IMG/VR virus record: IMGVR_UViG_3300030104_005222
Coordinates: 53,174 to 73,173 of that record
Source: an uncultured virus (IMG/VR IMGVR_UViG_3300030104_005222)
Lineage: Duplodnaviria; Heunggongvirae; Uroviricota; Caudoviricetes
Reading direction: 5' to 3' (one strand)
DNA length: 20,000 bases
The notes beneath the pieces are model-generated. The model saw nothing but the letters and a program-made list of their open reading frames with translations. It did not search any database and was not told the origin of the DNA. This document shows positions 8,800-20,000 of the stretch, piece by piece (position 1 is the stretch's first letter; every line of letters begins with the position of its first letter). The position numbers and the translations under genes were made by a program.

Positions 8800-9137
8800 G
8801 TAGAAACAATATGCACACAACGGAAAACAATCTCAGCACCATAATCGTTTGAGATCTTATACATGGTCGGTGAACGCTGACCTCTGACCGATGACGGAGC
8901 CGATTGAACAATTTTCAAAGCTGCGTCGTAGTTATCTTTATCCCGAAAAGGAATTTGATAATTACCGAAGTCAGTACTTAAGTTGATCACGTACGTTTTT
9001 GGTTGAGGTTCAGGTGCCTTTGGTGCCTCTTTTTTAGGTGCAGCTTTCTTAGGTGCAGCTTTTTTCGGTGCAGCTTTTTTTGGTGCTGACGTTTTTGCTG
9101 GTGTCTTCTTTGTTGTTGGTTTTTTTGCCGTAGGCAT
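8787..9137 (-). CDS. Lys/Ala/Pro-rich histone-H1-like protein with a small C-terminal domain
   Basis: KKAAP repeats, AAGGAG RBS upstream, candidate extended -10 promoter. Confidence 0.7.
   Translation of the reverse strand: MPTAKKPTTKKTPAKTSAPKKAAPKKAAPKKAAPKKEAPKAPEPQPKTYVINLSTDFGNYQIPFRDKDNYDAALKIVQSAPSSVRGQRSPTMYKISNDYGAEIVFRCVHIVSTYEL
9030..9086 (-). repeat. 15-bp tandem repeat (about 3.8 copies) encoding PKKAA
   Basis: TTTYTTnGGTGCAGC units at 9030, 9045, 9060 and a partial copy at 9075. Confidence 0.85.
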
Positions 9138-9330: not shown

Positions 9331-11460
9331 ATGGTGAAAATGGAAAGTGATGGCTCAGCGACGGTAGAAGAACCTCGCAGTGCAGAACAGGCTGAGCCCA
9401 GTCGAACAGCAGGAGAACAGGCTGAAGAGATTATTCAGTCTTTATTGTCTTCGTTGCAAGAGGGTAATCGAGTAGAACAACGTGCTGCTTGGGCAGAGTT
9501 GCATGACCCAGACATCATGGCCACGTTGGCCGATGGGTGGAGACAATCGGAAGGCACGTTGAGTGCGGCGCTTTCGATCATTGAAACAATACCAGGACAG
9601 GTGCAAAGGTCTCGTACGTTTCGATCTGCGGTTAGGCGCTTGGCAGAAGAGCGTAGTCGTCGAGACGCCGAGGCTATGCTGGATCAACTTGAGGAAGAGT
9701 TGGGTCAACCACAAACGTTGGCTTTGGCGTTTGGTCCTGGTGCACCACCACCCTCTGTTGTTGAGCACCAAACGTTGGAGACGCTTCATGTCCCAAGGGG
9801 ATACGAGATTGATCTGACTGGTGTGTATCGTTTAGCCGCATCAGTAGACGGAACGATCAACAGAACAAAGATTGCTGCCGCACCGATTTTTATCGGGGGC
9901 CGGACGATTGATGTGTACACGGGCGAGGCAAAGCGTCAGGTCATCTGGCGTGGTCCAAGCGGCTGGTGCTCACGTGTTATAGAGAGACGAACAATTTTAG
10001 ACGCTTCAAAGATCGTCGCATTGACGAACCTGGAAGCACCAATCAATTCAAACACAGCCGGTCAGATGGTTTCGTACCTGTCTGATTTCGAAGCTGAGAA
10101 CAGTCATAGGTTTCCTGTGGTACGTTCTGCGGCTCGGATGGGTTGGCAACCTGACGGTGGGTTTTTATTACCCGATGTGTTTTACGCTGCGAATGATGAG
10201 GCAAGTTCCAATTTTGCTTTGACTCCACCAAGCGGGCTAGAAACTTTATCATCTGGGTGGACTACCGCTGGATCCTGGGACGACTGGATCGAAGCGATGG
10301 AGCTTGTCTCATCATTCCCTTACATGTACATCGCTACATACGCGGGTGCTGCTGCACCATTGCTTTCGATACTGAAGATCCCTGGCTTTGTTGTGGACTT
10401 TAGTGGAGAGACAAGTGGTGGTAAGACTACTGCGTTGCGATTTGCTGCTTCTGTTTGGGGTCGTCCCGCTGAGTCATATCCAACAGCCATGTATTCCTGG
10501 GACGCTACGAAGGTTTGGATTGAACGAACCAGTGGGTTCCTCAGTAATCTACCGTTGATTCTCGACGAGACGAAACGTGCGCGTCATCCTCGTATTGTGC
10601 GTGATGTGATCTATGACTTTTGTCAGGGGCAGGGTCGTGGTCGTGGATCGGTCGAAGGTACACGGCACACTGAGTCGTGGCGTTCTGTGTTGATCAGTAG
10701 TGGTGAGGGTGCAGCGACATCGTTTTCTCAAGATGCAGGGACACGGGCACGCGTGTTGAGCCTGAAGGGTAAACCTTTGGGATCAGATGTAACCATCGGT
10801 TCACGAGTCAGTGAGGAAGCGCAGGTAATACTTGCGAGTAACTATGGGCATCTGGGTAGGCGTGTAGCTCAGTACCTTGTGTCTAATCACGAAAGGCATA
10901 ACGACATACGGCAGATCTTCCAGCGGGCTCGCGAGAAGTACGCAGGTGTTGCCCGCACAGCCGTGGCTCGTAGACACGCAGGACACCTGGCGGTATTAGA
11001 AGTGACAGCAGCAATCGTGCATTTACTTGGAGTACCAAAGCCTGATGTCGATCCATTTTCCTACCTGATGGAGTCACAGGAGATGGCAGGGCTGGATGCC
11101 GATCGTCCCTTGGCGGCACTACAGGACTTGTTGTCGTGGTGCGCCACTCATCAGCAACGGTTCTGGGGTCGAGCAGAAACTGATTTCCACGGCCACGCCA
11201 AGGCTCCGCAACGTGGATGGGCAGGCAGTTGGGGTGGTGGTGATGACTGGGAGTACATTGCGATTGCAGTCATTACTTTCAAAGAAGTAATCAGAGAGAT
11301 CGGCCATGACCCTGATGAGATCATCCAACGTTGGACTGCACGGGGATGGTTGAACACAGGAAACGGTCGACATCGTAGTCGTGTAGTCAGAGTCGATGGT
11401 GCGCCCACGCGTTGTTACTGCATCGACAGAAGCGCATCCGACTTTGCGTTGGGTAATTAG
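9331..11460 (+). CDS. DUF927-containing replicative helicase (Cch/MCM-like AAA+)
   Basis: DUF927-like region (RMGWQPDGGFLLP), Walker A GETSGGKTT, ASVWG.P, Walker B LPLILDE, GQGRGR, WR..LISSGE, GTRARVL, NYGHLG and a C-terminal winged-helix-like region. Confidence 0.8.
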   Translation: MVKMESDGSATVEEPRSAEQAEPSRTAGEQAEEIIQSLLSSLQEGNRVEQRAAWAELHDPDIMATLADGWRQSEGTLSAALSIIETIPGQVQRSRTFRSAVRRLAEERSRRDAEAMLDQLEEELGQPQTLALAFGPGAPPPSVVEHQTLETLHVPRGYEIDLTGVYRLAASVDGTINRTKIAAAPIFIGGRTIDVYTGEAKRQVIWRGPSGWCSRVIERRTILDASKIVALTNLEAPINSNTAGQMVSYLSDFEAENSHRFPVVRSAARMGWQPDGGFLLPDVFYAANDEASSNFALTPPSGLETLSSGWTTAGSWDDWIEAMELVSSFPYMYIATYAGAAAPLLSILKIPGFVVDFSGETSGGKTTALRFAASVWGRPAESYPTAMYSWDATKVWIERTSGFLSNLPLILDETKRARHPRIVRDVIYDFCQGQGRGRGSVEGTRHTESWRSVLISSGEGAATSFSQDAGTRARVLSLKGKPLGSDVTIGSRVSEEAQVILASNYGHLGRRVAQYLVSNHERHNDIRQIFQRAREKYAGVARTAVARRHAGHLAVLEVTAAIVHLLGVPKPDVDPFSYLMESQEMAGLDADRPLAALQDLLSWCATHQQRFWGRAETDFHGHAKAPQRGWAGSWGGGDDWEYIAIAVITFKEVIREIGHDPDEIIQRWTARGWLNTGNGRHRSRVVRVDGAPTRCYCIDRSASDFALGN

Positions 11461-12784: not shown

Positions 12785-12800
12785 GTGTTACCTGGTTCGT

Positions 12801-13499
12801 TTAGTGGATTAGGAAGCCGACGATGGGTGGTGCGTTTTCGTCTTTGGGATTGCACCAACCGCATGTGTTGCAGTCTTTGTCGGAAACTTGTGCGGGGCAC
12901 AAATGGACTGTGCGACCCTCGGGAGTGGTGTAGCGTTCGCCGTTCCACTCAGGGATTGAAGATAGTGATGCGCGTTTTGACCCTGGTGTCTTGCGGTCTG
13001 TGATAGTTACGGCGGCGTGCCATCCGGAAGATACGGCCTTGTCGGCGCGAGCGAGGGTGTCGACGGATGCCATTGCCAGGTACTTGAGGTGACGTGCGCG
13101 TGTGTCGAAGAAGTGGGTGTAGATTAGTAGGCCGCGCATTCCTGCGCGGCGCACTTTTTTGTGCCAGGATTCGACCGTGTCTCGGGGGAAGATACATGGG
13201 TCACCACCGACGGCGGCACGGACATAGCGTGCAGTGTTGCGAGAATGCTGTAGAGCGTAGTCAAGCGTGTATTGGGTGGGGTGTTGTGCGGCACGGCGTT
13301 GCATGGATGCTTGGGCACCGGTTGCCTGGCCGTTCCAGAAGTAGCAACCACCACCTTTGCCTGTGCGTTTGTTTCGTCGACGTAGTGGGCATCCTTTGCA
13401 GGAAGACTCTGTCTCGTCGCGAGTTGCACCGACGTATCCTTGAGGTATGGGGCCGGTCTTCGTGTTGCGTGAGTCGGGACGCCATAGCATTGTTGGCAT
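12801..13499 (-). CDS. Cys-rich phage protein (gp88-like, possible Fe-S/radical-SAM-like fold)
   Basis: NTKTGPIP, SCKGCPL...GCY, VR..VGGD, YTH, ASVD, CPAQ....CNTCGWC and C-terminal GFLIH; AGGAG RBS. Family recognised from memory. Confidence 0.55.
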   Translation of the reverse strand: MPTMLWRPDSRNTKTGPIPQGYVGATRDETESSCKGCPLRRRNKRTGKGGGCYFWNGQATGAQASMQRRAAQHPTQYTLDYALQHSRNTARYVRAAVGGDPCIFPRDTVESWHKKVRRAGMRGLLIYTHFFDTRARHLKYLAMASVDTLARADKAVSSGWHAAVTITDRKTPGSKRASLSSIPEWNGERYTTPEGRTVHLCPAQVSDKDCNTCGWCNPKDENAPPIVGFLIH

Positions 13500-13508
13500 G
13501 GTGGGCTC

Positions 13509-13841
13509 CTATATGTCTTCGCGTGGTGGGGGGCCGTTGTGTATGGTGCGTATTTGGGGATCATCGTTGAGGGCTTGAGCCAGGCGGGATTGTGGTTCGA
13601 CTGGAGGTTGGTTGACGTCACCGTTGATGCTGAAAGGATTGAACGGTTGTCGTGTTGCGTAGTCTTGTAGCACCATGCCAATGACACTCTTCAAACCATC
13701 AAGGCGTAGTTGTTCTTCTTCAAGGCATGAGCGAACCTCGTCGTAGGTAGCGTCGGCTGTGTCACAATAGACCTGGGTTTTGGTGCGAGATTCGACTGCG
13801 ATTCGGTAGGCTTGGATTTGGTCGTGGATCATGTGGAGCAT
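13509..13841 (-). CDS. Hypothetical protein
   Basis: Start moved to ATG 13841, 4 nt after the upstream stop, which removes a long overlap. Confidence 0.55.
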   Translation of the reverse strand: MLHMIHDQIQAYRIAVESRTKTQVYCDTADATYDEVRSCLEEEQLRLDGLKSVIGMVLQDYATRQPFNPFSINGDVNQPPVEPQSRLAQALNDDPQIRTIHNGPPPREDI

Positions 13842-13845
13842 TGGG

Positions 13846-14100
13846 TTACCAGATAGTTTTGTAGGTTGGCATTGGAAGATGGTCGTCACCCAGTGCTTCT
13901 CGAGTGACGTCGTAGTAGGTGTTTTCCCAGTCGTCGGGAAGTGAGCCGGCACCTTTTGGCATGATTAGTTGTATGACTTGGATAGCGTCGGAGAACCACA
14001 TACCGGCGCGCATTAGGCGGGCGACGGCGTATTGGTAGAAGAATACGTGGTTCGGTTGCAGGTCACGGGTTCGGCCCTTGAGCAGGTCATTGCGTTGCAT
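13846..14100 (-). CDS. Hypothetical protein
   Basis: GAGG RBS; tiles with neighbouring genes. Confidence 0.6.
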   Translation of the reverse strand: MQRNDLLKGRTRDLQPNHVFFYQYAVARLMRAGMWFSDAIQVIQLIMPKGAGSLPDDWENTYYDVTREALGDDHLPMPTYKTIW

Positions 14101-14440
14101 CGGAGCCTCGGTTGATTGGGTGGATGTAGATCATGACGTCCTCGATGGTGCACAGTTCTTTGTCGATTGCGGCCTGCATTATTTGCTGATGGCTTAGGGT
14201 TTCGTCGTACGTGGGGAAGTCGCGTATATCGAAGTTGTGTACGCTGGTTGGGTCACCCCATGAATCAAGGCCGTCTCCAAGCGTGTACCAGTAGGTGAGG
14301 CGGTTGTTTGGGTCGTCGTCTTTGTAGCAGTGATAGACCTTGATGTACTGTAGGTGTTTGTACAGAGCGCGTTTGAACTGTACGAAGTGGTGACATTTGA
14401 AGGCCAACTCGGGTGGTATCCATTTTGTTTCCCACGGCAT
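14087..14440 (-). CDS. Hypothetical protein
   Basis: TAATG coupling with the upstream gene; protein-like composition. Confidence 0.6.
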   Translation of the reverse strand: MPWETKWIPPELAFKCHHFVQFKRALYKHLQYIKVYHCYKDDDPNNRLTYWYTLGDGLDSWGDPTSVHNFDIRDFPTYDETLSHQQIMQAAIDKELCTIEDVMIYIHPINRGSDATQ

Positions 14441-14661
14441 TAGGACAAACGCTTTTGCAGTTCAAGTTCGCAGCATGTAAGTAACCACTGAAGCTGCTCG
14501 TTTGTAAACATAGTCAGTTGATCCTGGTAAATCGTTACTTCAGCTTCGGCATCGAAGTCTGTAATTTCGACATGGGCTATATCGTTTTCGATGGAGAGTT
14601 CTACGTCGGCGCTGGAGATGAATACGCCGTGGGTGAATGTGATGCTGGATGGTTTGGTCAC
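14440..14661 (-). CDS. Hypothetical protein
   Basis: GTG start 4 nt after the upstream stop; TAATG overlap downstream. Confidence 0.55.
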   Translation of the reverse strand: MTKPSSITFTHGVFISSADVELSIENDIAHVEITDFDAEAEVTIYQDQLTMFTNEQLQWLLTCCELELQKRLS

Positions 14662-14665
14662 TGGA

Positions 14666-15109
14666 TCAGCCTTGGGTGATTACGCGTAGGCCGCGTGTTG
14701 TTTCTGGGATGGCGGTTGTAGTTGTGTCGTAGTCTTCGATGATTAGTTCACCGTCGAACTGTGTGCTGCCGGTACGTGGGATCTCACGGTAGGGCATGAT
14801 TTGTTCGATACGGTGGTCAAACCATCCGTGGTCGGCGTGTTCGAAACGGCCCTTGCGAATGTCGGTGAGGTTGTCTAAGAGTGCTGTGTATTGGGAGGGG
14901 GTGAGGCGGTCGAGCAGGTAACGTACGATGTGTGCACTGCCGCTGTCGTTGCGGCGTTTGGTGACACCGGCCTTGCCTCGACGTACTACGCCGAGAAGGG
15001 TGCATGTCACCTCGACTGGGTAGGTGCCTGCGTCGAGGTCGGCCTTGAAGTGGGAGGCGTTTTTACCTTGGTTGAATTTTTGTAGGGCGATGGTGGTAAT
15101 CGGGTCCAT
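14666..15109 (-). CDS. Hypothetical protein (MDPITTIALQKF...)
   Basis: Start moved to ATG 15109 (AGGA RBS) to avoid overlap with the upstream gene. Confidence 0.6.
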   Translation of the reverse strand: MDPITTIALQKFNQGKNASHFKADLDAGTYPVEVTCTLLGVVRRGKAGVTKRRNDSGSAHIVRYLLDRLTPSQYTALLDNLTDIRKGRFEHADHGWFDHRIEQIMPYREIPRTGSTQFDGELIIEDYDTTTTAIPETTRGLRVITQG

Positions 15110-15116
15110 GGGAATC

Positions 15117-15494
15117 CTATAGTACTGCGACTCGAGGGCCGTAGAAGTTGTGGGTTGCGTGGTAGGTTGTTGATAAGCGGGCGAAGTCGGACTCGTACAC
15201 GGGAGTTTTAGTGCCGAGGGTGACGAAGGAATCGTATTCGTATGGGTCATAGATGATACGTTTGTAGTCGTGGTCGTTTGGGTGAGGTGTCGACTGGTCG
15301 GAGGTCAGTAGTGTTCCGCGTGCGAAAGCGTGTACGTTCTTGCGGCGGGTTTTTAGTACGCGAGCACGACCGCCTGGTTGAACGACCCACTTGATGTCAC
15401 GTAATAAAACAAACTGTGTGTGGTCGATGACCTTGCCTTTGTGGCGTACACTGAAGCAGTTTTTGTTTAGGTTCCAATAGACTTCAACTTTCAT
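15117..15494 (-). CDS. Conserved phage hypothetical protein (MKVEVYWNL...RKNVHAF type)
   Basis: YWNL..CFSV, GR.RVL..RRKNVHAF..G and YDPY..F motifs, recalled from a widespread phage family. GGAG RBS and ATGA overlap at 15494. Confidence 0.65.
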   Translation of the reverse strand: MKVEVYWNLNKNCFSVRHKGKVIDHTQFVLLRDIKWVVQPGGRARVLKTRRKNVHAFARGTLLTSDQSTPHPNDHDYKRIIYDPYEYDSFVTLGTKTPVYESDFARLSTTYHATHNFYGPRVAVL

Positions 15495-15661
15495 TTCAAC
15501 TCCAGTATTGATTCGATCCATTGTTTTTGTTGGGTGTCGATGATTAGCGAGCAGAGTGTGTCGACCTCGGTCTGGATCAATTCGGTGTGACGTTTGCCTA
15601 TTTCTTCGTCTATGGTTTTTACGTGAGTTAGCATGGCATCGAGTATTGCTTCGTAGTTCAT
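15491..15661 (-). CDS. Small hypothetical protein, 56 aa (MNYEAILDAMLTHVK...WIESILELK); not in the ORF track
   Basis: Translated by hand; ATGA overlaps at both ends. Confidence 0.65.
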   Translation of the reverse strand: MNYEAILDAMLTHVKTIDEEIGKRHTELIQTEVDTLCSLIIDTQQKQWIESILELK

Positions 15662-15792
15662 GGTTTCGTCGTGCGAAAGGCGTCACGTAGAAGATCCCAA
15701 TCGATATCATTCATGGTTCCTCCGTCTTCGGATGCAATCAGTACGTGCTCGATTACAGAACGTAGGTATGAAATAGTTTGTTGTGGTGTCAT
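15658..15792 (-). CDS. Small hypothetical protein (MTPQQTISYLRS..., 44 aa)
   Basis: AAGGAG RBS; ATGA overlaps at both ends. Confidence 0.6.
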   Translation of the reverse strand: MTPQQTISYLRSVIEHVLIASEDGGTMNDIDWDLLRDAFRTTKP

Positions 15793-15989
15793 GATTGATC
15801 TCCTTCGTAGCATTCGGCGCATACAATTTCGTCGTCGAGTGGTGGGTGGGTTTCGCATAGGTGACACAACTCAGAGTACATGCATTCGCGGCACAGCCAG
15901 CCGTTGCCTGTTTCGGTACGGTTGATGAACAAGCCGCTTCCAGGTGTGGTGTTTTGTTTGCATTCTACGCATAGGTCGATGGTGGCCAT
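15789..15989 (-). CDS. Small multi-CxxC zinc-finger protein
   Basis: Four CxxC motifs (CVEC, CREC, CHLC, CAEC); GGAG RBS. Confidence 0.65.
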   Translation of the reverse strand: MATIDLCVECKQNTTPGSGLFINRTETGNGWLCRECMYSELCHLCETHPPLDDEIVCAECYEGDQS

Positions 15990-16002
15990 GGATGCTCCAG
16001 GA

Positions 16003-16089
16003 TGGTGCTTGAGGCGGGACTCGAACCCGCATGGCTGTGATGCCGGGAGATTTTAAGTCTCCTGTGTCTACCGGTTCCACCACTCAAGC
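16003..16089 (-). tRNA. trnL-TAA: tRNA-Leu (anticodon UAA), 87 nt with encoded CCA
   Basis: Minus strand GCTTGAG...GGAGA-CTTAAAA-TCTCC, long variable arm, GCGGG-TTCGAGT-CCCGC, CTCAAGC-A-CCA: a complete cloverleaf. Confidence 0.95.
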
Positions 16090-16093
16090 ATGT

Positions 16094-16254
16094 GAAGGGG
16101 AGTGGGTTGGTCTGGCAAGGCGAGGTTGGGGTTGAGGTGAAAGAAGAAAAGTGTGGGGTGAAGGGGAATGGCCTGGGTTGGTCTGGCGAGTCGAGGAATG
16201 TTACGGTAGGGTGCGGGCCGAGAGGTGCCAGGTTGTTATGGTGCCTGGCTCACC
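16094..16254. ncRNA. Pentamer-periodic array 1 (two tracts, linker, hairpin); candidate guide-like ncRNA
   Basis: On + strand, G at every fifth base over 16094-16139 and 16155-16225, mostly GG-N-NN. Linker GAAAGAAGAAAAGTGT; hairpin GCCAGG...CCTGGC. The repeat structure is directly visible; RNA status is inferred. Confidence 0.7.
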
Positions 16255-16260
16255 GAAAGT

Positions 16261-16881
16261 TTATGCAGCCTTGCGTTTGGGGTACTTGCCTTTGGCGTCT
16301 TGGACCTCAACGCTGAAGCGACCGAAGCCGTAGCCACGACTTGCTCCAATGCCACAGAAGTTTCCTGACTGGGTGATGAAGTGGATGATGTCATCGCGGT
16401 TCATCTTGTCGTTGCCGGAGTAGTTGATTGTAAATTCGCAGGACCATTCGGGTACGATTGCACGAGTGGTGGGCACTTGTACCATGCCGCTCTTCATGAT
16501 CGAATCGTATCGATAACGAGGATCGTTTGCGATTTCGTCGAGGTCGTCGGAACCACCGTGGATGAGCTTGGCTGGACCGGCGATGATGGCGTAACGTTTA
16601 CAGTTAGCTCCCATGCGGTCAAGCTTTGCACCGTCAATAAAGGCGGCGCGCAAGTTAGCGGCGGGGATATAAAGACCGAGTTCCTTATTCCAATAAAGAC
16701 CGGCTTTGACACGTAGGATGGACTGTTTTTCAAGGATTGCGTCGACGTCTGCGCCTTTGCGCTTGGAGGCCTTGTGCAATTCCTTGAGCCGCTTGGCGTA
16801 TTCGTTGCGGGGATCGGCAGTCTGGTTGTTGTCCATCATGAGAGGCCCGCGTCCGGTGATACGAAATGTAATTGATTTCAT
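16261..16881 (-). CDS. Stand-alone RAMP/Cas7-like (Csm3-like) protein
   Basis: N-terminal strand ITFRITGRGPLMM, YIPAANLRAAF (cf. RAMP IPGSSLKG), RAIVPEWSCEFTI, and a C-terminal Gly-rich loop GIGASRGYGFGRFSV; GGAG RBS. Confidence 0.75.
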   Translation of the reverse strand: MKSITFRITGRGPLMMDNNQTADPRNEYAKRLKELHKASKRKGADVDAILEKQSILRVKAGLYWNKELGLYIPAANLRAAFIDGAKLDRMGANCKRYAIIAGPAKLIHGGSDDLDEIANDPRYRYDSIMKSGMVQVPTTRAIVPEWSCEFTINYSGNDKMNRDDIIHFITQSGNFCGIGASRGYGFGRFSVEVQDAKGKYPKRKAA

Positions 16882-16884
16882 GGG

Positions 16885-17421
16885 TTACTCCGAGAAAGTT
16901 TGGTCGGGGATGATGATGTTGGGTTTGGTCTCGAGTGTGATCCGTTCGCGTGCGGCGTCACGCATTGCCTGTTGGGCGGACCCCTCAAGTGCACCGAGGC
17001 GAACCTGGTGATTGATTTTGCGGCGACGTTCCTGCATGTCGAGGTCGGAGTCGCGAGTCTTTTCGAGGATGCGGGAGCTTTTGCGGATCGCTTTGACGAT
17101 GTCACGGGTAGCGGTGGTTGAAGCGTAGTCAATGTTCTCGGCGGGGCGAAGGATCTCAAAGCCATAGCCGTAGACGGTGCGAGGGAAACGTCCGGTCTCT
17201 TCGAGGATGCGTTCGCGCCATGTCTCGCGCAGGTACATTAGGTTTAGGGACCATGACTGATGATCGGCGACTGGTTGGTCGTCAGTTGGTGGAGTCAACT
17301 GGGACATTGCGATGAGGTCATCGCTGCTGAGTGTGTAGCTGTCGGGTTGTGATTGTAAGAGTTCGGTGGTTGCCGATACGGCAAGCTCGATAGCGGTGGT
17401 TACTTGGCTTTGGGTGTACAT
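16885..17421 (-). CDS. Partner gene of the RAMP-like protein; possible winged-helix plus coiled coil
   Basis: Stop lies 3 nt before the RAMP start. Helix followed by wing-like RTVYGYGFEIL, then a long basic helix. Start moved to ATG 17421 because the upstream extension reads through array 2. Confidence 0.6.
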   Translation of the reverse strand: MYTQSQVTTAIELAVSATTELLQSQPDSYTLSSDDLIAMSQLTPPTDDQPVADHQSWSLNLMYLRETWRERILEETGRFPRTVYGYGFEILRPAENIDYASTTATRDIVKAIRKSSRILEKTRDSDLDMQERRRKINHQVRLGALEGSAQQAMRDAARERITLETKPNIIIPDQTFSE

Positions 17422-17431
17422 GAGTATCCAT

Positions 17432-17600
17432 GGTTGGGGTGATAAAAAGTGTGGTAGGGAAAGGTCTGAGCTGAGTAGGACAGGATAGGTGTGTGCTGGT
17501 TCGAGGCGGAGAGAAAGAAAGTGTGGGTGGGTGTGGGAAGGTCTGGGCTGGCACGAGGTGGAGAGTTGCAGGGTTTTGGTGCGTCTGGATGACCCTGCGA
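17432..17600. ncRNA. Pentamer-periodic array 2 (two tracts, linkers, hairpin); candidate guide-like ncRNA
   Basis: On + strand, G at every fifth base over 17453-17513 and 17525-17565. Linkers GATAAAAAGTGT and GAAAGAAAGTGT; hairpin TTGCAGGGTT...GACCCTGCGA. Confidence 0.7.
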
Positions 17601-17610
17601 ACCACAAGGA

Positions 17611-18543
17611 TTATTTGGCTTCGCCAACGTCGATGTACTCACGGATGCTGAGGTCGAACGCTGGAATGTGGGCGTCGGTTACTGAACCACCAGCGGCAGC
17701 GATAGCCTTGGTGGCGTGGTCGATACCGGCGAAGTGACGGAATGCCTGGTTGGGTGGAGTGCGTTGACCTGCTGCGGTGACAGCCTGGTATGCACTGAAC
17801 AGGTCATTGCCACCGTGTTCGTCATGCAACTCACCGTTGTGGCAGGCGTTCCAGTAACGGAAAGCTGCGTTGAATGAGTTGGGTTTGATGAGTCCACGGC
17901 TGAACAGGACGCCCATGTATGCACCGAATAAATCGTTTTGTACTGGGATGTCTTTCCAGCCCTGTACCATACGGATGCGTTCGAGCACTGGCGTTACAGC
18001 AGTGTCGGTGATGTCATCGATCATGTTACTGAGCGTTGAGAATACGTTGGTTGTGTGCTTGGCACTGACCATGTGCTCGCCCGAGAAACAACCGTTGGCA
18101 CACACGAATGGTGCACTGCCGATTGCAATCTGGTTAGAGATGGACTTGTCATAGCTTGAACGCAGTGCAACGGTGAGAGCCTGGCCGGTGAGACCGGAAC
18201 CGAAACCAATCATACCGAAGAGTTGACTGCCTTTCTGGTTGAGAGCATAGGTCTCGAACAGTGGGTCAGCATCAAGGACGTTGGCCATTGCATCGCGAGC
18301 ACCGTTGATCAAAGATGCGTACGGTACAGGTTGGTAAGATGCGTTGCCGGAACGTGGATGGTATTCCGTTTCAGGTACGGGGATGGCACATACCGTTTCG
18401 TAGTTGACTCGATATGCCTCGGGCGCACCGACGGTGCAGATCTGTTGAGACTTGAGGGCGGGAGGTGGTGCAACACGCGCGCGATTGAGATTATCGTTTA
18501 GGCGAGGTGCGTCGACAGGTTTGTGATTGTGGTTTTGAAACAT
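17611..18543 (-). CDS. DUF932/DUF945-family protein
   Basis: YQPV, LRSSYDKS and FVCANG motifs followed by KHT, plus a C-terminal DLFSAYQAVT (cf. W..YNA.T). Start moved to ATG 18543 (GAGG RBS). Confidence 0.7.
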   Translation of the reverse strand: MFQNHNHKPVDAPRLNDNLNRARVAPPPALKSQQICTVGAPEAYRVNYETVCAIPVPETEYHPRSGNASYQPVPYASLINGARDAMANVLDADPLFETYALNQKGSQLFGMIGFGSGLTGQALTVALRSSYDKSISNQIAIGSAPFVCANGCFSGEHMVSAKHTTNVFSTLSNMIDDITDTAVTPVLERIRMVQGWKDIPVQNDLFGAYMGVLFSRGLIKPNSFNAAFRYWNACHNGELHDEHGGNDLFSAYQAVTAAGQRTPPNQAFRHFAGIDHATKAIAAAGGSVTDAHIPAFDLSIREYIDVGEAK

Positions 18544-18550
18544 CGGTTCC

Positions 18551-18838
18551 TCATCGGTAGATGTAATGTTGGGGGTGGTTGTCGAGAGACAGTATGTAAA
18601 CGTTTTCCTGCTTAGCAGTAGATGGGTGATAGTAGTGACGGAAGTGGTGGTGCCAGGTAGTACTGGTTGTGGTTGGGCGTGTGGTGCCCATGTAGGACCA
18701 CTTCTCACCGCACTCGTGGTATCGCTTGGCGGGTGGGCCGAAGTCGATGGAAGTTAGATGGGTCCAGACCCGAGTCCATTCGGGACTCTCGGTGCGTAGC
18801 CAACGTAGGTTGGGGGCTATGAGATAGGTATCGTCCAT
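18551..18838 (-). CDS. Hypothetical protein, His/Trp-rich
   Basis: GEKWSYMGT...HHFRHYYHP motif; tiles within the operon. Confidence 0.55.
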   Translation of the reverse strand: MDDTYLIAPNLRWLRTESPEWTRVWTHLTSIDFGPPAKRYHECGEKWSYMGTTRPTTTSTTWHHHFRHYYHPSTAKQENVYILSLDNHPQHYIYR

Positions 18839-19101
18839 TGGGCAGTGTTTCCTTTGCGTGGGTTACGCGGTAAATCCTGAAGAAGAATGTGCAGATGAAT
18901 GCAGTCATTCGTCGGTAGGATGCCGTCGTATACAGCAAGGTAAAGCGCAGCAGTTTGTTCAAGTAGTGGTAGTACTTCGTGACTGTTTTTGTTTGCCTTC
19001 TTGACGAGAATCCGATTGGGGTTCTGTAATGTTTCGAGCCAGTTGATAAATGCTTGGCGTTTTTCCTCTGGGGTTGTGGGGGTTTTTTTACGTGGTGGCA
19101 T
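18817..19101 (-). CDS. Hypothetical protein
   Basis: ATG directly follows the ssb stop codon. Confidence 0.55.
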   Translation of the reverse strand: MPPRKKTPTTPEEKRQAFINWLETLQNPNRILVKKANKNSHEVLPLLEQTAALYLAVYDGILPTNDCIHLHILLQDLPRNPRKGNTAQWTIPIS

Positions 19102-19491
19102 TTAGAATGGGATCCCGTCGTCGTTTTGCCATTGGTTACCTGCAGGAGCGGGCGGAGCACTGGACTTGTTGGATGCACGAGAACCAAACTCGACACGGTC
19201 AGCGATGACTTCGAGACTTTTGCGTTCGATACCGGTCTTGTCAGTGTACGTACGTTTACGAATCTTGCCTTCGACAAGGATACGGGAACCCTTGGAAAGG
19301 TTTTGCGCGCAGACCTCGCCTTGACGTCCGAAGACTACGATGTTGTGCCACTCGGTGTGGTCGACCCATTCGCCGTCAACCTTGTCGCGTTCGTTAGTGG
19401 CAAGGCTGAGGTTGCAAACGGGCGTACCTTTTTTGGAGTGACGTAGTTCTGGATTGGCACCGAGGTTGCCAAATAGGATGGTGATGTTCAT
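19102..19491 (-). CDS. ssb: Single-stranded DNA-binding protein, bacterial type
   Basis: MN...L.GNLG..PELR, TEWHNIVVFG, L.KGS.I.VEGK and a C-terminal DDGIPF tail; GAGGA RBS. Confidence 0.95.
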   Translation of the reverse strand: MNITILFGNLGANPELRHSKKGTPVCNLSLATNERDKVDGEWVDHTEWHNIVVFGRQGEVCAQNLSKGSRILVEGKIRKRTYTDKTGIERKSLEVIADRVEFGSRASNKSSAPPAPAGNQWQNDDGIPF

Positions 19492-19512
19492 GAGTTGTCC
19501 TCGTTTAAAGAT

Positions 19513-19572
19513 TAGTAGGGTGCTGGTTTTTGACCCTGCTAGTTAGTTGATTCGCGGCTTTCGAAACCAGCA
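19513..19572. promoter_or_regulatory. Intergenic structured element with overlapping inverted repeats
   Basis: TGCTGGTTT (19521-29) / AAACCAGCA (19564-72) and TAGTAGGGT (19513-21) / ACCCTGCTA (19533-41). Confidence 0.4.
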
Positions 19573-19590
19573 AAAGGGGTGGCCACTTTG

Positions 19591-19986
19591 TTAAGATGTT
19601 TGGTTGGAGTGCAAACGCGCAACGACCATGTTCAGATGACATATGAACATGTTGTCATCCATGATGTTGCCGAAGGAGATGGTCGCATCTCGTTCGATAA
19701 GAGAGTCGATCGTGTGGGTGATGTCTTTGATAAGCTCGTCCTGGTTGTCAGGTAGACGTTCCTTGTTGGCGTAAAGTACCAATCCGTTGACATCACTTAT
19801 CGTAAGGGTGAGCCCTGTGCCTGCGCCAAGCCGGACAGAATTTGCGTAGGCAATCCATGGTGCGCCCATTAGAATGTCGCGTCCGTAAAGGTAACCAGCG
19901 TACATGATCAGATCCAGTGGTGTACCTTTCCAAAAGGGCCAGTCAGCTACGCGCACCTGGTTGTCGGTGTTGTGGTCATTGATCAT
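19591..19986 (-). CDS. Hypothetical protein
   Basis: TAAGGAG RBS upstream of ATG 19986. Confidence 0.65.
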   Translation of the reverse strand: MINDHNTDNQVRVADWPFWKGTPLDLIMYAGYLYGRDILMGAPWIAYANSVRLGAGTGLTLTISDVNGLVLYANKERLPDNQDELIKDITHTIDSLIERDATISFGNIMDDNMFICHLNMVVARLHSNQTS

Positions 19987-20000
19987 TGGCGGGCTCCTTA

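Follow-up and report, generated by a model that had tools for sequence, protein, structure and literature searches.

The closest described relatives of the locus analysed here are the phage systems named VIPR (Viral Interference Programmable Repeat), in which an ancestral RAMP protein serves as the basis of RNA-guided DNA silencing. They became known only in 2026, through a set of preprints (10.64898/2026.04.26.720920, 10.64898/2026.04.26.720927, 10.64898/2026.10.15.759431). A minimal locus has vipr and a single accessory gene, vap, between long non-coding spacers, and neither cas genes nor a CRISPR array; the Vipr protein combines an RRM core, a glycine-rich loop and a thumb, it binds the expressed vrRNAs, and an invariable, structured 3' tail comes after the repeats. 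The published repeat tracts span 9-16 units, each with a GGY scaffold and a variable NN, and vrRNA calling accepts as few as 4 units (10.64898/2026.04.26.720920). The code reads the last two bases of every GG-led pentamer, with a skip of 1 nt (10.64898/2026.04.26.720920). Alternative consensus sequences listed in the same preprint are NNNGG, YNNNG and NNNNG, and further non-canonical ones, WGT/NN and TGH/NN, are given elsewhere (10.64898/2026.10.21.760802).

The window, a stretch of 20,000 nt (positions 53,174 to 73,173 of IMG/VR record IMGVR_UViG_3300030104_005222), belongs to an uncultured marine phage of ~73 kb that also encodes an N4-vRNAP-like giant protein. We find in it two paralogous G-rich tracts, at 16094-16225 on the plus strand, whose letters agree with those quoted in an earlier, sequence-only reading of this DNA. 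These tracts are very probably vrRNA repeat tracts of a phage VIPR system. Homology, repeat anatomy, the confinement of the tracts and indels that keep the register carry their interpretation as guides, and the RAMP fold of the neighbouring protein comes from a model. VIPR has already been described in the 2026 preprints, and the locus adds a further member with unusual features: its arrays converge on vipr, and its consensus is NNNGG. The features of the locus are, in window coordinates:

16003..16089, minus strand: tRNA-Leu(UAA), found by ARAGORN and Rfam; it bounds the array and lies outside the system
16094..16138, plus strand: probable vrRNA repeat tract A (tract 1 of the sequence-only reading), 9 GG-led pentamers by the earlier count, 7 by the strict one
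16139..16154, plus strand: A-rich linker or leader, which ends GTGTGG and precedes tract B
16155..16224, plus strand: probable vrRNA repeat tract B (tract 2), 14 units, 13 by the strict count
16227..16249, no strand: hairpin 1, immediately 3' of tract B (plus strand), 11 nt away from the stop codon of vipr
16261..16881, minus strand: vipr gene, encoding a 206-aa RAMP-family protein, PHROG phrog_4652
16885..17421, minus strand: candidate vap (Vipr accessory protein) of 178 aa, its end separated by 3 nt from the start codon of vipr
17453..17512, plus strand: probable vrRNA repeat tract C, 12 units, upstream of candidate vap, from the genome-wide caller
17525..17564, plus strand: probable vrRNA repeat tract D, 8 units, from the genome-wide caller
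17568..17598, no strand: hairpin 2, immediately 3' of tract D (plus strand), with a stem of 7 bp and a loop of 17 nt

The product of the gene at 16261-16881 matches PDB chain 36pp_D, 'SUSP1 Vipr protein', in a phmmer search (E 7.2e-19, query residues 1-195 against chain residues 1-191), with about 31% identity. It is modelled as a RAMP fold: the AF2 model reaches a pLDDT of 92.1, and Foldseek returns 80 PDB matches at E<=1e-3, the top ones being backbone subunits of type III, IV and VII CRISPR systems and Cas6. Weak profile matches to Csm4 and Cas6 fall on a C-terminal glycine-rich loop, GhGxxxxxGhG, at residues 177-187. There are 25 metagenome homologs of this Vipr. The residues with which SUSP1 Vipr contacts G1 and G2 count against the assignment, R138 alone being kept (R140 here), while H17 is replaced by D, D177 by A and W178 by S. 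Among the other residues that hold G1, G2 and Y3 in SUSP1, R179 and C173 are kept, E71 has become A and M72 has become N, and the loop is one residue longer. This residue set characterises one clade and not the Vipr family as a whole, and at the present locus the relaxed GGNNN scaffold is accompanied by matching changes in the pyrimidine-pocket residues.

Arrays of this kind and Vipr genes also go together elsewhere. Among viral loci whose period-5 arrays are degenerate, 55 of 88 have a Vipr-HMM match within the DNA examined, compared with 4 of 40 microsatellite-like loci. The sequence-only reading had held the pentamer register to be biologically meaningful; the Vipr (RAMP) gene that adjoins the tracts, and a published code that reads GG-led pentamers, bear this out. 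On the Vipr match, TRAP-like ring binding, a two-tetrad G-quadruplex and an R-loop were dropped as explanations, and tandem promoters, origin iterons and a Rho rut site were set aside.

The second gene of the operon is conserved as well. Its 178-aa frame is 53-65% conserved in five relatives, whereas an overlapping 95-aa frame reaches 45-49% over about 58 residues in four of the five. Neither Pfam nor PHROG matches the 178-aa protein. Its AF2 model has a pLDDT of 69.5 and a winged-helix-like order of N-terminal secondary structure; Foldseek finds nothing at E<=1e-3, although winged-helix DNA-binding domains make up most of its weak top rows.

A caller for GGNNN units finds just four tracts in the 73-kb phage, all on the plus strand and flanking the candidate vap-vipr pair, two on either side; in 20 block-shuffled genomes it makes a mean of 0.05 calls. 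The spacers that bear the tracts measure 171 and 189 nt, while vipr and the conserved 178-aa gene are 3 nt apart. Tracts A and C have a conserved A-rich linker, not a hairpin, on their 3' side, and the hairpins follow B and D, each pair of tracts ending in a conserved hairpin. Copies of the linker before C and D belong to a repeat family, D1, at 16139-16181, 17437-17479 (60%) and 17509-17551 (72%); the linker may be a 5' leader, a processing site or the tail of the preceding vrRNA. Hairpin 1 is a candidate vrRNA 3' tail and/or two-way terminator. It is kept in five relatives, with one pair changed on both sides (A-U in three, G-C in three), and no T-run follows it on either strand. Hairpin 2 lies 12 nt from the stop of a DUF932-like gene and by eye is similar to the relatives' hairpin 1, down to the GAACCA after it. 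Rfam detects the tRNA and nothing else (gathering threshold on the window, E<=1 on L001-L003), and DNA similarity to cultured phages is confined to a match at the tRNA. CRISPR-Cas identity was rejected, with no repeat-spacer array with identical direct repeats in the window (repeat search, TRF) and no cas families among its 27 PHROG-scanned and 22 Pfam-scanned ORFs.

The sequence-only reading had described two related tracts that differ by one whole pentamer, and had proposed autocorrelation at lag 5 against shuffled controls as a check. Both stand. With a single 5-nt gap, 31 of 34 aligned bases are identical (by eye), and an ungapped repeat search pairs 16092-16124 with 16158-16190 at 76% identity; tract A is a paralog of tract B minus one unit. 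All 9 pentamers of tract 1 and all 14 of tract 2 have G at one phase. Over 16094-16225 the lag-5 value for G and the period-5 power exceed all 2000 dinucleotide-preserving shuffles. For the intergenic span 16090-16260, an unbiased choice of borders, a fraction of 0.0015 of 2000 shuffles reaches the observed period-5 power and none of the 2000 reaches the lag-5 value. The same test gives no signal in the tract region at periods 3, 4, 6, 7 and 10. Across the whole 73-kb genome the region of tracts A and B is the top period-5 window, with a score of 2.03 (99.9th percentile 1.34), and the runner-up, 17418-17517 with 1.61, is the second array. Periodicity beyond shuffles, as the earlier reading had expected, holds for the window and for all five relatives tested. 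At L072 it was undetected over the whole region, where by eye there are short GGY-like tracts in different phases with hairpins between them. The strict caller places 7 units at 16099-16133 (tract A) and 13 units at 16155-16219 (tract B), the two tracts standing in different phases modulo 5; the outermost pentamers of the earlier listing are weak, because the strict caller drops them.

Composition alone suggests another explanation, in which the minus-strand transcript, rich in C and poor in G, would load Rho here at a rut site, a weakly structured C>G segment of some 70-80 nt, or would have an unstructured leader between vipr and the next gene, the repeats being coincidental. Over 143 nt the spacer's sense strand has 50% C and 10% G, the stretch comes after the hairpin behind the stop codon, and a Rho subunit, according to the accessible part of the review PMC12360218, holds 5 nt, with linkers of 4-5 nt between, and prefers A and C. 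We consider a rut site very unlikely. It leaves unexplained the strict 5-nt period with one invariant base, the confinement of the tracts beside vipr, the association of such arrays with Vipr genes at 55 of 88 loci, and the conservation of N4-N5 over N3 that is described next; moreover, most other loci have repeats that are G-rich on the sense strand of the gene.

In 152 units from the window and five relatives, G makes up 99% at position 1 and 80% at position 2, positions 3-5 vary, and the tracts range from 7 to 19 units. The consensus, NNNGG, is one of the listed alternatives of VIPR. Two figures count against the VIPR reading, namely that the window's own units have G at position 2 in just 74%, and that position 3 is a pyrimidine in 55% of units here versus 100% in canonical arrays. 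Compared with its ortholog in L069, tract B is identical at positions 1 to 5 in 13, 9, 6, 12 and 12 of 14 units. From these per-position identities, the guide positions N4 and N5 are kept and N3 is drifting, a pattern that shows purifying selection on N4 and N5. Indels had been predicted to come in multiples of 5, and all four in-tract indels in the window and its relatives do so (5, 5, 15 and 15 nt); the two others, of 1 nt each, sit at the edge of a tract or in a linker. Among relatives with a single vrRNA the differences are blocks of 15 nt, between L002 and L069 they amount to two whole vrRNAs, and the distance from tract B to the hairpin differs by one unit from that in L069.

The same comparison bears on the idea that the repeats are tandem promoters, protein-binding sites such as tRNA promoters or origin iterons, or a decayed pentanucleotide microsatellite. 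In its favour, copy number among relatives ranges from 1 to about 6 units, the 5' end of the tRNA lies right against tract A, and the tracts of relatives have short true pentanucleotide runs (CCAAA) at one end. Yet L002 and L003, which were scanned, carry no tRNA and none is apparent in L069-L071, and the tracts are kept in all of them. The core motif occurs just twice in the genome, no promoter consensus was found in the window, neutral decay would not preserve N4 and N5 while N3 drifts, and neither would it tie arrays to a RAMP gene. We regard this family of explanations as highly improbable. A 15-nt tandem repeat at 9018-9096 is more iteron-like than the tracts. The core motif as a general promoter was rejected on its two genome copies and on a database search, in which 59 stretches included a single true relative, on L002's own contig, the rest looking like chance coding matches.

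Which strand is the RNA? We think it quite probable, on the sequence features that follow, that the G-rich plus strand is transcribed, in the direction of vipr. In L003 a sigma70-like promoter, TTGATG-17-TAAAAT (9/12), stands on the G strand and reads into the tract, with 0.3 in shuffles. A leader of the GAGAGACA type lies 5' of G tracts in canonical same-strand arrays (L186) and, by eye, in L002; the polarity of GAGAGACA relative to the G tract appears conserved, because the same element is found 5' of the G tracts in L186. Several observations count against the G strand. No sigma70-like promoter was found on either strand in 15500-16900 or in L002, the plus strand upstream of tract A is the antisense of the tRNA gene, and the G strand is opposite to vipr, any opposite-strand array being present in just 5 of 55 Vipr-linked loci. 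A terminator scan found nothing in the window or L002. The arrays being inverted relative to vipr, transcription of the vrRNA and of vipr would converge on the shared hairpin.

The locus could also be a VIPR locus whose functional RNA is the C-rich strand, running in the same direction as vipr, with a Vipr clade that reads CC. That strand would restore the usual arrangement, arrays being confined to the strand of vipr in 50 of 55 loci, and three of the four G-contact residues of SUSP1 are lost. In L002 and L069 a conserved CAGTGTCTCTCC lies 3' of each C-strand tract, where the accessible text of the preprint places an invariable tail (10.64898/2026.04.26.720920), and the outermost pair of the hairpin is in three relatives G-U on the C strand and C-A on the G strand. 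A plus-strand promoter, besides, was not found in the window. Set against this, the L003 promoter reads into the tract on the G strand, the GAGAGACA-type element is 5' of G tracts in canonical same-strand arrays too, R138, which contacts G2, is kept, and on the G strand the hairpin comes after the last tract, as expected of a 3' tail. No VIPR variant described in the accessible parts of the preprints reads CC. We judge a functional C-strand RNA rather unlikely.

The sequence-only reading had suggested searching databases with the last two bases of each pentamer, and these turn out to be the very bases that the VIPR code reads in the accessible text of the preprints; in tract B the guide dinucleotides are positions 4-5 of every unit. 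With a 1-nt skip, 23 of the 28 guide bases in tract B agree with the Walker B codons (ILFLDEIT) of an AAA_5 ATPase from other phages, of ~59 kb. Its 8-unit core finds 69 stretches in viral_contigs at a 1-nt skip versus 16 at a 2-nt skip; of the 69, a single AAA_5/phrog_1297 ATPase family accounts for 44, located at its Walker B box, and 33 agree with the guide in 23 of 28 bases. In 52 loci of the ATPase family, found by protein homology, tract B again scores 23/28, or 82% where a natural target calls for at least 80% of NN, while other skip rules reach at most 19 and 30 order-shuffled guides have a maximum of 21; the scoring is partly circular, because the family was found through the exact core. 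Taken alone, 23/28 is not significant database-wide, tens of chance sites being expected in viral_contigs by our own arithmetic from the 16 matches of the 2-nt-skip control scan. The phage's own genome holds neither a self-target nor a homolog of the AAA_5 ATPase. Guides A, C and D, as well as the other guides of the relatives, score no better than shuffled guides across the phage's own genome, the 196 early loci and the 52 target-family loci; the match of tract D is at shuffle level. On the matches of tract B we lean slightly towards these Walker B codons, in the gene for a MoxR-like AAA_5 ATPase carried by other phages of ~59 kb, as its target. Such a predicted target would fit the idea, put forward in the accessible VIPR texts, that skipping the wobble base defeats synonymous escape.

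By homology with SUSP1, one Vipr protomer would sit on each 5-nt unit and hold its GG scaffold. Bases 4-5 of the unit would then be exposed to pair with double-stranded DNA, every third target base being skipped, and the complex of vrRNA and Vipr would occupy a gene of a competing mobile element and silence it.

Tract A appears to be a duplicate of tract B that has lost one unit, and two of the three substitutions between them are, by eye, at guide position N4. Is tract A a new working guide, or is it decaying, its 5-nt difference reflecting repeat mutation and not selection? Decay is a serious possibility, if not the one we favour. Tract A matches 13-14/18 at best in every set scanned, which is not above shuffled guides, its 7 strict units are under the published 9-16, no hairpin follows it, and slippage on 5-nt repeats alone would yield multiples of 5. 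On the other side, GG persists in 7 consecutive units with none broken, the substitutions relative to tract B concentrate at N4 as just described, the calling minimum in the accessible text of the preprint is 4 units (10.64898/2026.04.26.720920), and the DNA scanned is a small share of possible target DNA.

A broader proposal of the sequence-only reading was that units diversify into new guides in the absence of Cas1-Cas2. The part that held is that the repeats are guides working without Cas1-Cas2, given the adjoining Vipr gene and the published code. That duplication and indels make new working guides is no more than plausible, tract A having no target above the level of shuffled guides in the DNA scanned. 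We put forward tentatively, and with some doubt, that VIPR guides are born or re-aimed by tandem duplication of a whole vrRNA, followed by gain or loss of 5-nt units and by changes at N4 and N5. Tracts A and B, one unit and two N4 changes apart, and the differences among the relatives appear to catch this re-aiming in the act. If true, it would be a route of guide diversification that needs no Cas1-Cas2.

The present locus extends VIPR to an uncultured marine phage and shows arrays on the strand opposite to vipr. Its close relatives form a natural series, in which guide positions are kept, the third base drifts and lengths change by whole units. This series provides direct comparative evidence for the published code as well as material on how guides arise.

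How does the locus compare with known systems? TRAP of Bacillus subtilis binds as a ring to 11 (G/U)AG repeats with spacers of 2-3 nt between them and does not work through a guide. The likeness lies in an oligomeric protein that reads a triplet-plus-spacer repeat of about 5 nt, whereas the TRAP fold is unrelated. The Cas7 backbone of class 1 CRISPR systems (Csm3, Cmr4 and Cas7 of types I, IV and VII) shares the RAMP fold with its glycine-rich loop, and also the principle of one protomer per repeat step of the guide with periodic bases withheld from pairing. The step, however, is 5 nt here and 6 nt there, and the guide here is a genomic tandem repeat, whereas there it is a spacer acquired by Cas1-Cas2.

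The closest likeness, as far as the accessible VIPR texts describe them, is to the type II systems of Escherichia phage SUSP1 and a Pseudomonas fulva prophage. Like them, the locus has a Vipr of ~200 aa, alignable end to end, and a two-gene operon flanked on either side by units of 5 nt in which GG is fixed and the final two bases vary. Its hairpins after tracts B and D may correspond to the structured element that follows the tracts there. It too is phage-encoded and lacks a self-target, and it too is predicted to aim at a coding sequence in another phage, the base that is skipped falling on the wobble position of the codon. Unlike type II VIPR, the locus does not keep H17, D177 and W178, which contact G, nor E71 and M72 of the pyrimidine pocket; its position 3 is not restricted to pyrimidines, its tracts are opposite to the vipr strand, and a simple hairpin common to two tracts takes the place of a pseudoknot tail per vrRNA. 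With the non-canonical VIPR systems, as the accessible text presents them, the locus shares period-5 arrays beside a Vipr-like fold and a relaxed scaffold trinucleotide.

Two tracts of G-led pentamers, A and B, occupy the 171-nt spacer between a 206-aa gene and tRNA-Leu(UAA), in the final 20 kb of a 73,173-bp IMG/VR virus record. Re-reading of the sequence bears out the + strand letters given for 16094-16225 by a sequence-only reading, with one-phase G in 9/9 pentamers of tract A and 14/14 of tract B. That reading held that the two tracts differ by one whole pentamer, and indeed 31/34 aligned bases are identical once its single 5-nt gap is placed; ungapped, a repeat search pairs 16092-16124 with 16158-16190 at 76% identity. 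The lag-5 autocorrelation of 16094-16225, a check suggested there, and its period-5 power exceed those of 2000/2000 dinucleotide-preserving shuffles. Across the unbiased intergenic span 16090-16260 the observed power is reached by 0.0015 of shuffles and the lag-5 value by none, periods other than 5 being flat in the same test. The array region is also the top period-5 window of the 73-kb genome. A caller of GG-led 5-nt units, run on the whole genome, finds four tracts in total, all on the + strand (control: mean of 0.05 calls over twenty block-shuffled genomes), and these flank two minus-strand genes:

16003-16089, minus strand: tRNA-Leu(UAA), from ARAGORN and Rfam
16099-16133, plus strand: tract A, from the GG-led unit caller
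16155-16219, plus strand: tract B, from the same caller
16227-16249: hairpin 1, 3' of tracts A/B on the plus strand
16261-16881, minus strand: vipr, 206 aa, PHROG phrog_4652, no Pfam family
16885-17421, minus strand: candidate vap (Vipr accessory gene), 178 aa, its end 3 nt ahead of vipr
17453-17512, plus strand: tract C, from the same caller
17525-17564, plus strand: tract D, from the same caller
17568-17598: hairpin 2, 3' of tracts C/D on the plus strand

There is one hairpin per tract pair, and the minus-strand gene facing each has its stop codon 11-12 nt away; hairpin 1 is kept in relatives, with one base pair altered on both sides. Tracts B, C and D are each preceded by an A-rich element with a GTGTGG end. 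Read on the minus strand, the spacer with tracts A and B is 50% C and 10% G. The 5' end of the tRNA lies 4 nt from the first pentamer of tract A; no tRNA turned up on scanning related loci L002 and L003, nor is one apparent in L069-L071, pointing to its recent insertion beside the array.

The identity of the locus comes from its protein. The 206-aa product resembles PDB 36pp_D, 'SUSP1 Vipr protein' (E 7.2e-19, residues 1-195), and has 25 homologs at 48-98% identity, unnamed metagenome proteins throughout. Its AlphaFold2 model, built with homologs (pLDDT 92.1), yields 80 Foldseek PDB matches at E<=1e-3, led by effector chains of type III Csm and Cmr, type VII and type IV-A3, and by Cas6; the PDB set used dates to April 2026 and is without a Vipr entry. 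The available text of 10.64898/2026.04.26.720920 describes Vipr, a small phage-encoded RAMP protein, and its guide vrRNAs, in which a structured 3' tail that does not vary comes after 9-16 YNNGG repeats. Pairing with double-stranded DNA involves both Ns of a unit and skips one target base per unit; natural targets are competing phages and satellites. The same text describes seven types of VIPR (Viral Interference Programmable Repeat), six vap genes and the alternative consensus repeats NNNGG, YNNNG and NNNNG. One protomer binds per repeat, and the residues holding G1, G2 and Y3 are named, in the text available of 10.64898/2026.04.26.720927. We conclude that these arrays and genes form a VIPR locus, a class of system published from April 2026 onwards. 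The 178-aa gene is a candidate vap: its frame is kept across five relatives, and its AF2 model, of middling confidence, has a winged-helix-like order of elements with no Foldseek match at E<=1e-3.

The window's phage carries portal, terminase, major head protein, DNA polymerase A, primase-helicase and SSB genes, and no close cultured phage was found for it. For the gene at 17611-18708, upstream of the second array, a DUF932 match falls below threshold (E 8e-4, 19.6 bits versus a cut-off of 23); in viral locus L072 a similar-looking gene sits on the downstream side of the array. Upstream of the primase-helicase gene (9331-11460), the spacer holds at 9018-9096 a 15-nt tandem repeat of about 4 copies (84-90% matches), which may be a set of origin iterons or else have a regulatory role. 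Within the primase-helicase ORF an ARAGORN 'tRNA-Stop' (10132-10226, anticodon TTA), without Rfam support at the gathering score, is probably a false call. Sense-strand C exceeds G throughout the minus-strand gene block made up of window 12800-20000 plus genome 1-4300 (+ strand GC skew +0.2 to +0.3); the plus-strand blocks, and the remaining minus-strand block at genome 7-14 kb, show sense-strand G>C. Outside the window, genome 29973-38585 (L005 10973-19585) encodes a 2870-aa ORF with a weak match at residues 1188-1369 to an N4-type virion RNA polymerase PHROG (E 7e-10); it is possible that the phage injects an RNA polymerase of its own.

How do such guides change? In word searches of two of the VIPR preprints, an origin of guides through duplication, indel or slippage is nowhere discussed; a third such preprint of 2026 is bioRxiv 10.64898/2026.10.15.759431. 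Six related loci were found through the 206-aa protein, L068 being identical across the region. L002 holds about six tract units, L069 about four, and L003, L070 and L071 one tract each; the 5-nt period is present in 5/5 non-identical relatives and is reached by 0/1000 shuffles in each. L003, L070 and L071 differ by two indels, each of exactly 15 nt. Between L002 and L069 there is a 136-nt difference, equal to two whole units, along with two 1-nt indels, one at a hairpin-tract junction and one in a linker. The expectation that relatives would differ by multiples of 5 is upheld, in-tract indels being so in 4/4 cases (5, 5, 15 and 15 nt), the 5-nt ones separating A from B and B from L069. Tract B aligns with the hairpin-adjacent tract of L069 at a one-unit offset, with identity at positions 1-5 of 13, 9, 6, 12 and 12 of 14. 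Positions 4 and 5 (N4 and N5, the guide bases) are thus held while N3 drifts, which matches the prediction of the published code for a functional guide. Three further substitutions separate A from B, two at N4 (by eye). Within the VIPR reading, tract A may be a decaying duplicate and not a new guide, a possibility that we entertain with some doubt. Together the locus and its relatives make up a comparative series that bears on guide evolution.

Arrays of this kind recur elsewhere. Searching viral_contigs for fourteen YC steps spaced 5 nt apart gave at least 128 stretches. Among the matches listed, 40 loci are plain microsatellites or homopolymers and 88 are degenerate CCNNG-type arrays, some >1 kb; an ORF matching an HMM of the window protein and homologs occurs in 55/88 of the latter versus 4/40 of the former. 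These counts are of loci, not independent phages, several being overlapping pieces of one contig and many having 300-nt flanks only. Among the same listed matches the G-rich strand is the ORF coding strand in 50/55, and at least one opposite-strand array occurs in 5/55. L072 1130-1790 has a Vipr homolog (33% identical) and, after it on the same strand, about six hairpins, their stems varying in sequence with complementarity kept (by eye) and GAAA loops in two, that alternate with G/T-rich stretches of about 60 nt holding GGY-led pentamers (by eye); this looks like a canonical tract-plus-tail array. At L074 640-1200, beside a Vipr gene, a conserved 57-nt hairpin element alternates with tracts of about 14 units. 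L126 1390-2960 is about 1.5 kb of nearly unbroken CCNNG units from vipr to a RusA-like gene, and L186 280-1070 consists of modules each repeating the vipr 3' end ahead of a tract.

Given the Vipr homology, the RNA is expected to be the G-rich strand, here the + strand, converging on vipr, and we regard this as very probable. That the C-rich strand is instead the RNA, within the VIPR reading, appears improbable, even though a promoter scan of the window and L002 found none, opposite-strand arrays are rare among the matches listed, the G-contact residues H17, D177 and W178 of SUSP1 Vipr align with D, A and S, and L002 and L069 have a conserved short element after each C-strand tract. Against it, a sigma70-like promoter on the G strand of L003 reads into the tract, a hairpin follows the last tract on the G strand, as a 3' tail would, and, by eye, the G tracts of both L002 and the L186 array, a canonical same-strand one, have a GAGAGACA-type element on their 5' side. 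The L003 promoter (2962-2990, locus minus strand) overlaps the RBS and start codon of the next, opposite-strand gene, and transcription of vrRNA and of that gene may interfere mutually.

A target can be predicted for tract B. The guide core, eight units with N4 and N5 identical in B and L069, joined by the 1-nt skip, matches 69 stretches of viral_contigs, versus 16 for the same bases at a 2-nt skip. In frame it reads I-L-F-L-D-E-I-T, a Walker B box, and 44/69 matched ORFs belong to a single ATPase family (Pfam AAA_5, phrog_1297). Guide bases match at 23/28 in 33 of the 69 stretches and 24/28 in one; chance 23/28 sites in the collection, estimated from the 16 control matches, number in the tens. 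Two of the five mismatches fall in one serine codon, AGn in the guide versus TCn in the genes, a codon-family switch that leaves the residue unchanged. In 52 ATPase-family loci (659,722 bases) gathered by protein homology, the family having first been found through the exact core, tract B reaches 23/28 in 30 locus-strands; other skip rules reach 19, 30 order-shuffled guides reach 21 at most, and the L069 ortholog guide reaches 16/18 in 49. The proposed search with the last two bases of each pentamer in gapped form thus yields a candidate target for tract B at the 1-nt skip; guides A, C and D give no match above shuffles. The target-family contigs are phages of about 59 kb that encode a terminase, a DNA polymerase and a helicase of their own; homologs of the ATPase in cultured phages are <60% identical, and the window's phage itself lacks both the gene and a self-target. 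We find it somewhat favoured that tract B is directed at these Walker B codons, and the locus thereby offers a testable predicted target.

A Rho rut site, tandem promoters, iterons, a TRAP-like ring or a decayed microsatellite: none explains jointly the confinement of tracts to vipr flanks, the linkage of arrays with Vipr genes elsewhere, the position-specific conservation in tracts and, among the matches listed, the G-richness of most such arrays on the gene's sense strand. The available text of 10.64898/2026.10.21.760802 reports VIPR arrays recovered through a 5-nt entropy period, with non-canonical scaffolds. Here, over 152 units of this clade, G stands at position 1 in 99% and position 2 in 80%, and position 3 is a pyrimidine in 55%, versus 100% of 109 canonical units (L126, L186). 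In alignment the window protein retains R138, C173 and R179 of SUSP1 Vipr, whereas E71 and M72 of the pyrimidine pocket are A and N, smaller residues in agreement with the relaxed third position. The locus is unusual in three respects: its arrays lie on the opposite strand, its GGNNN scaffold is accompanied by corresponding changes in the pocket, and two tracts share a hairpin.
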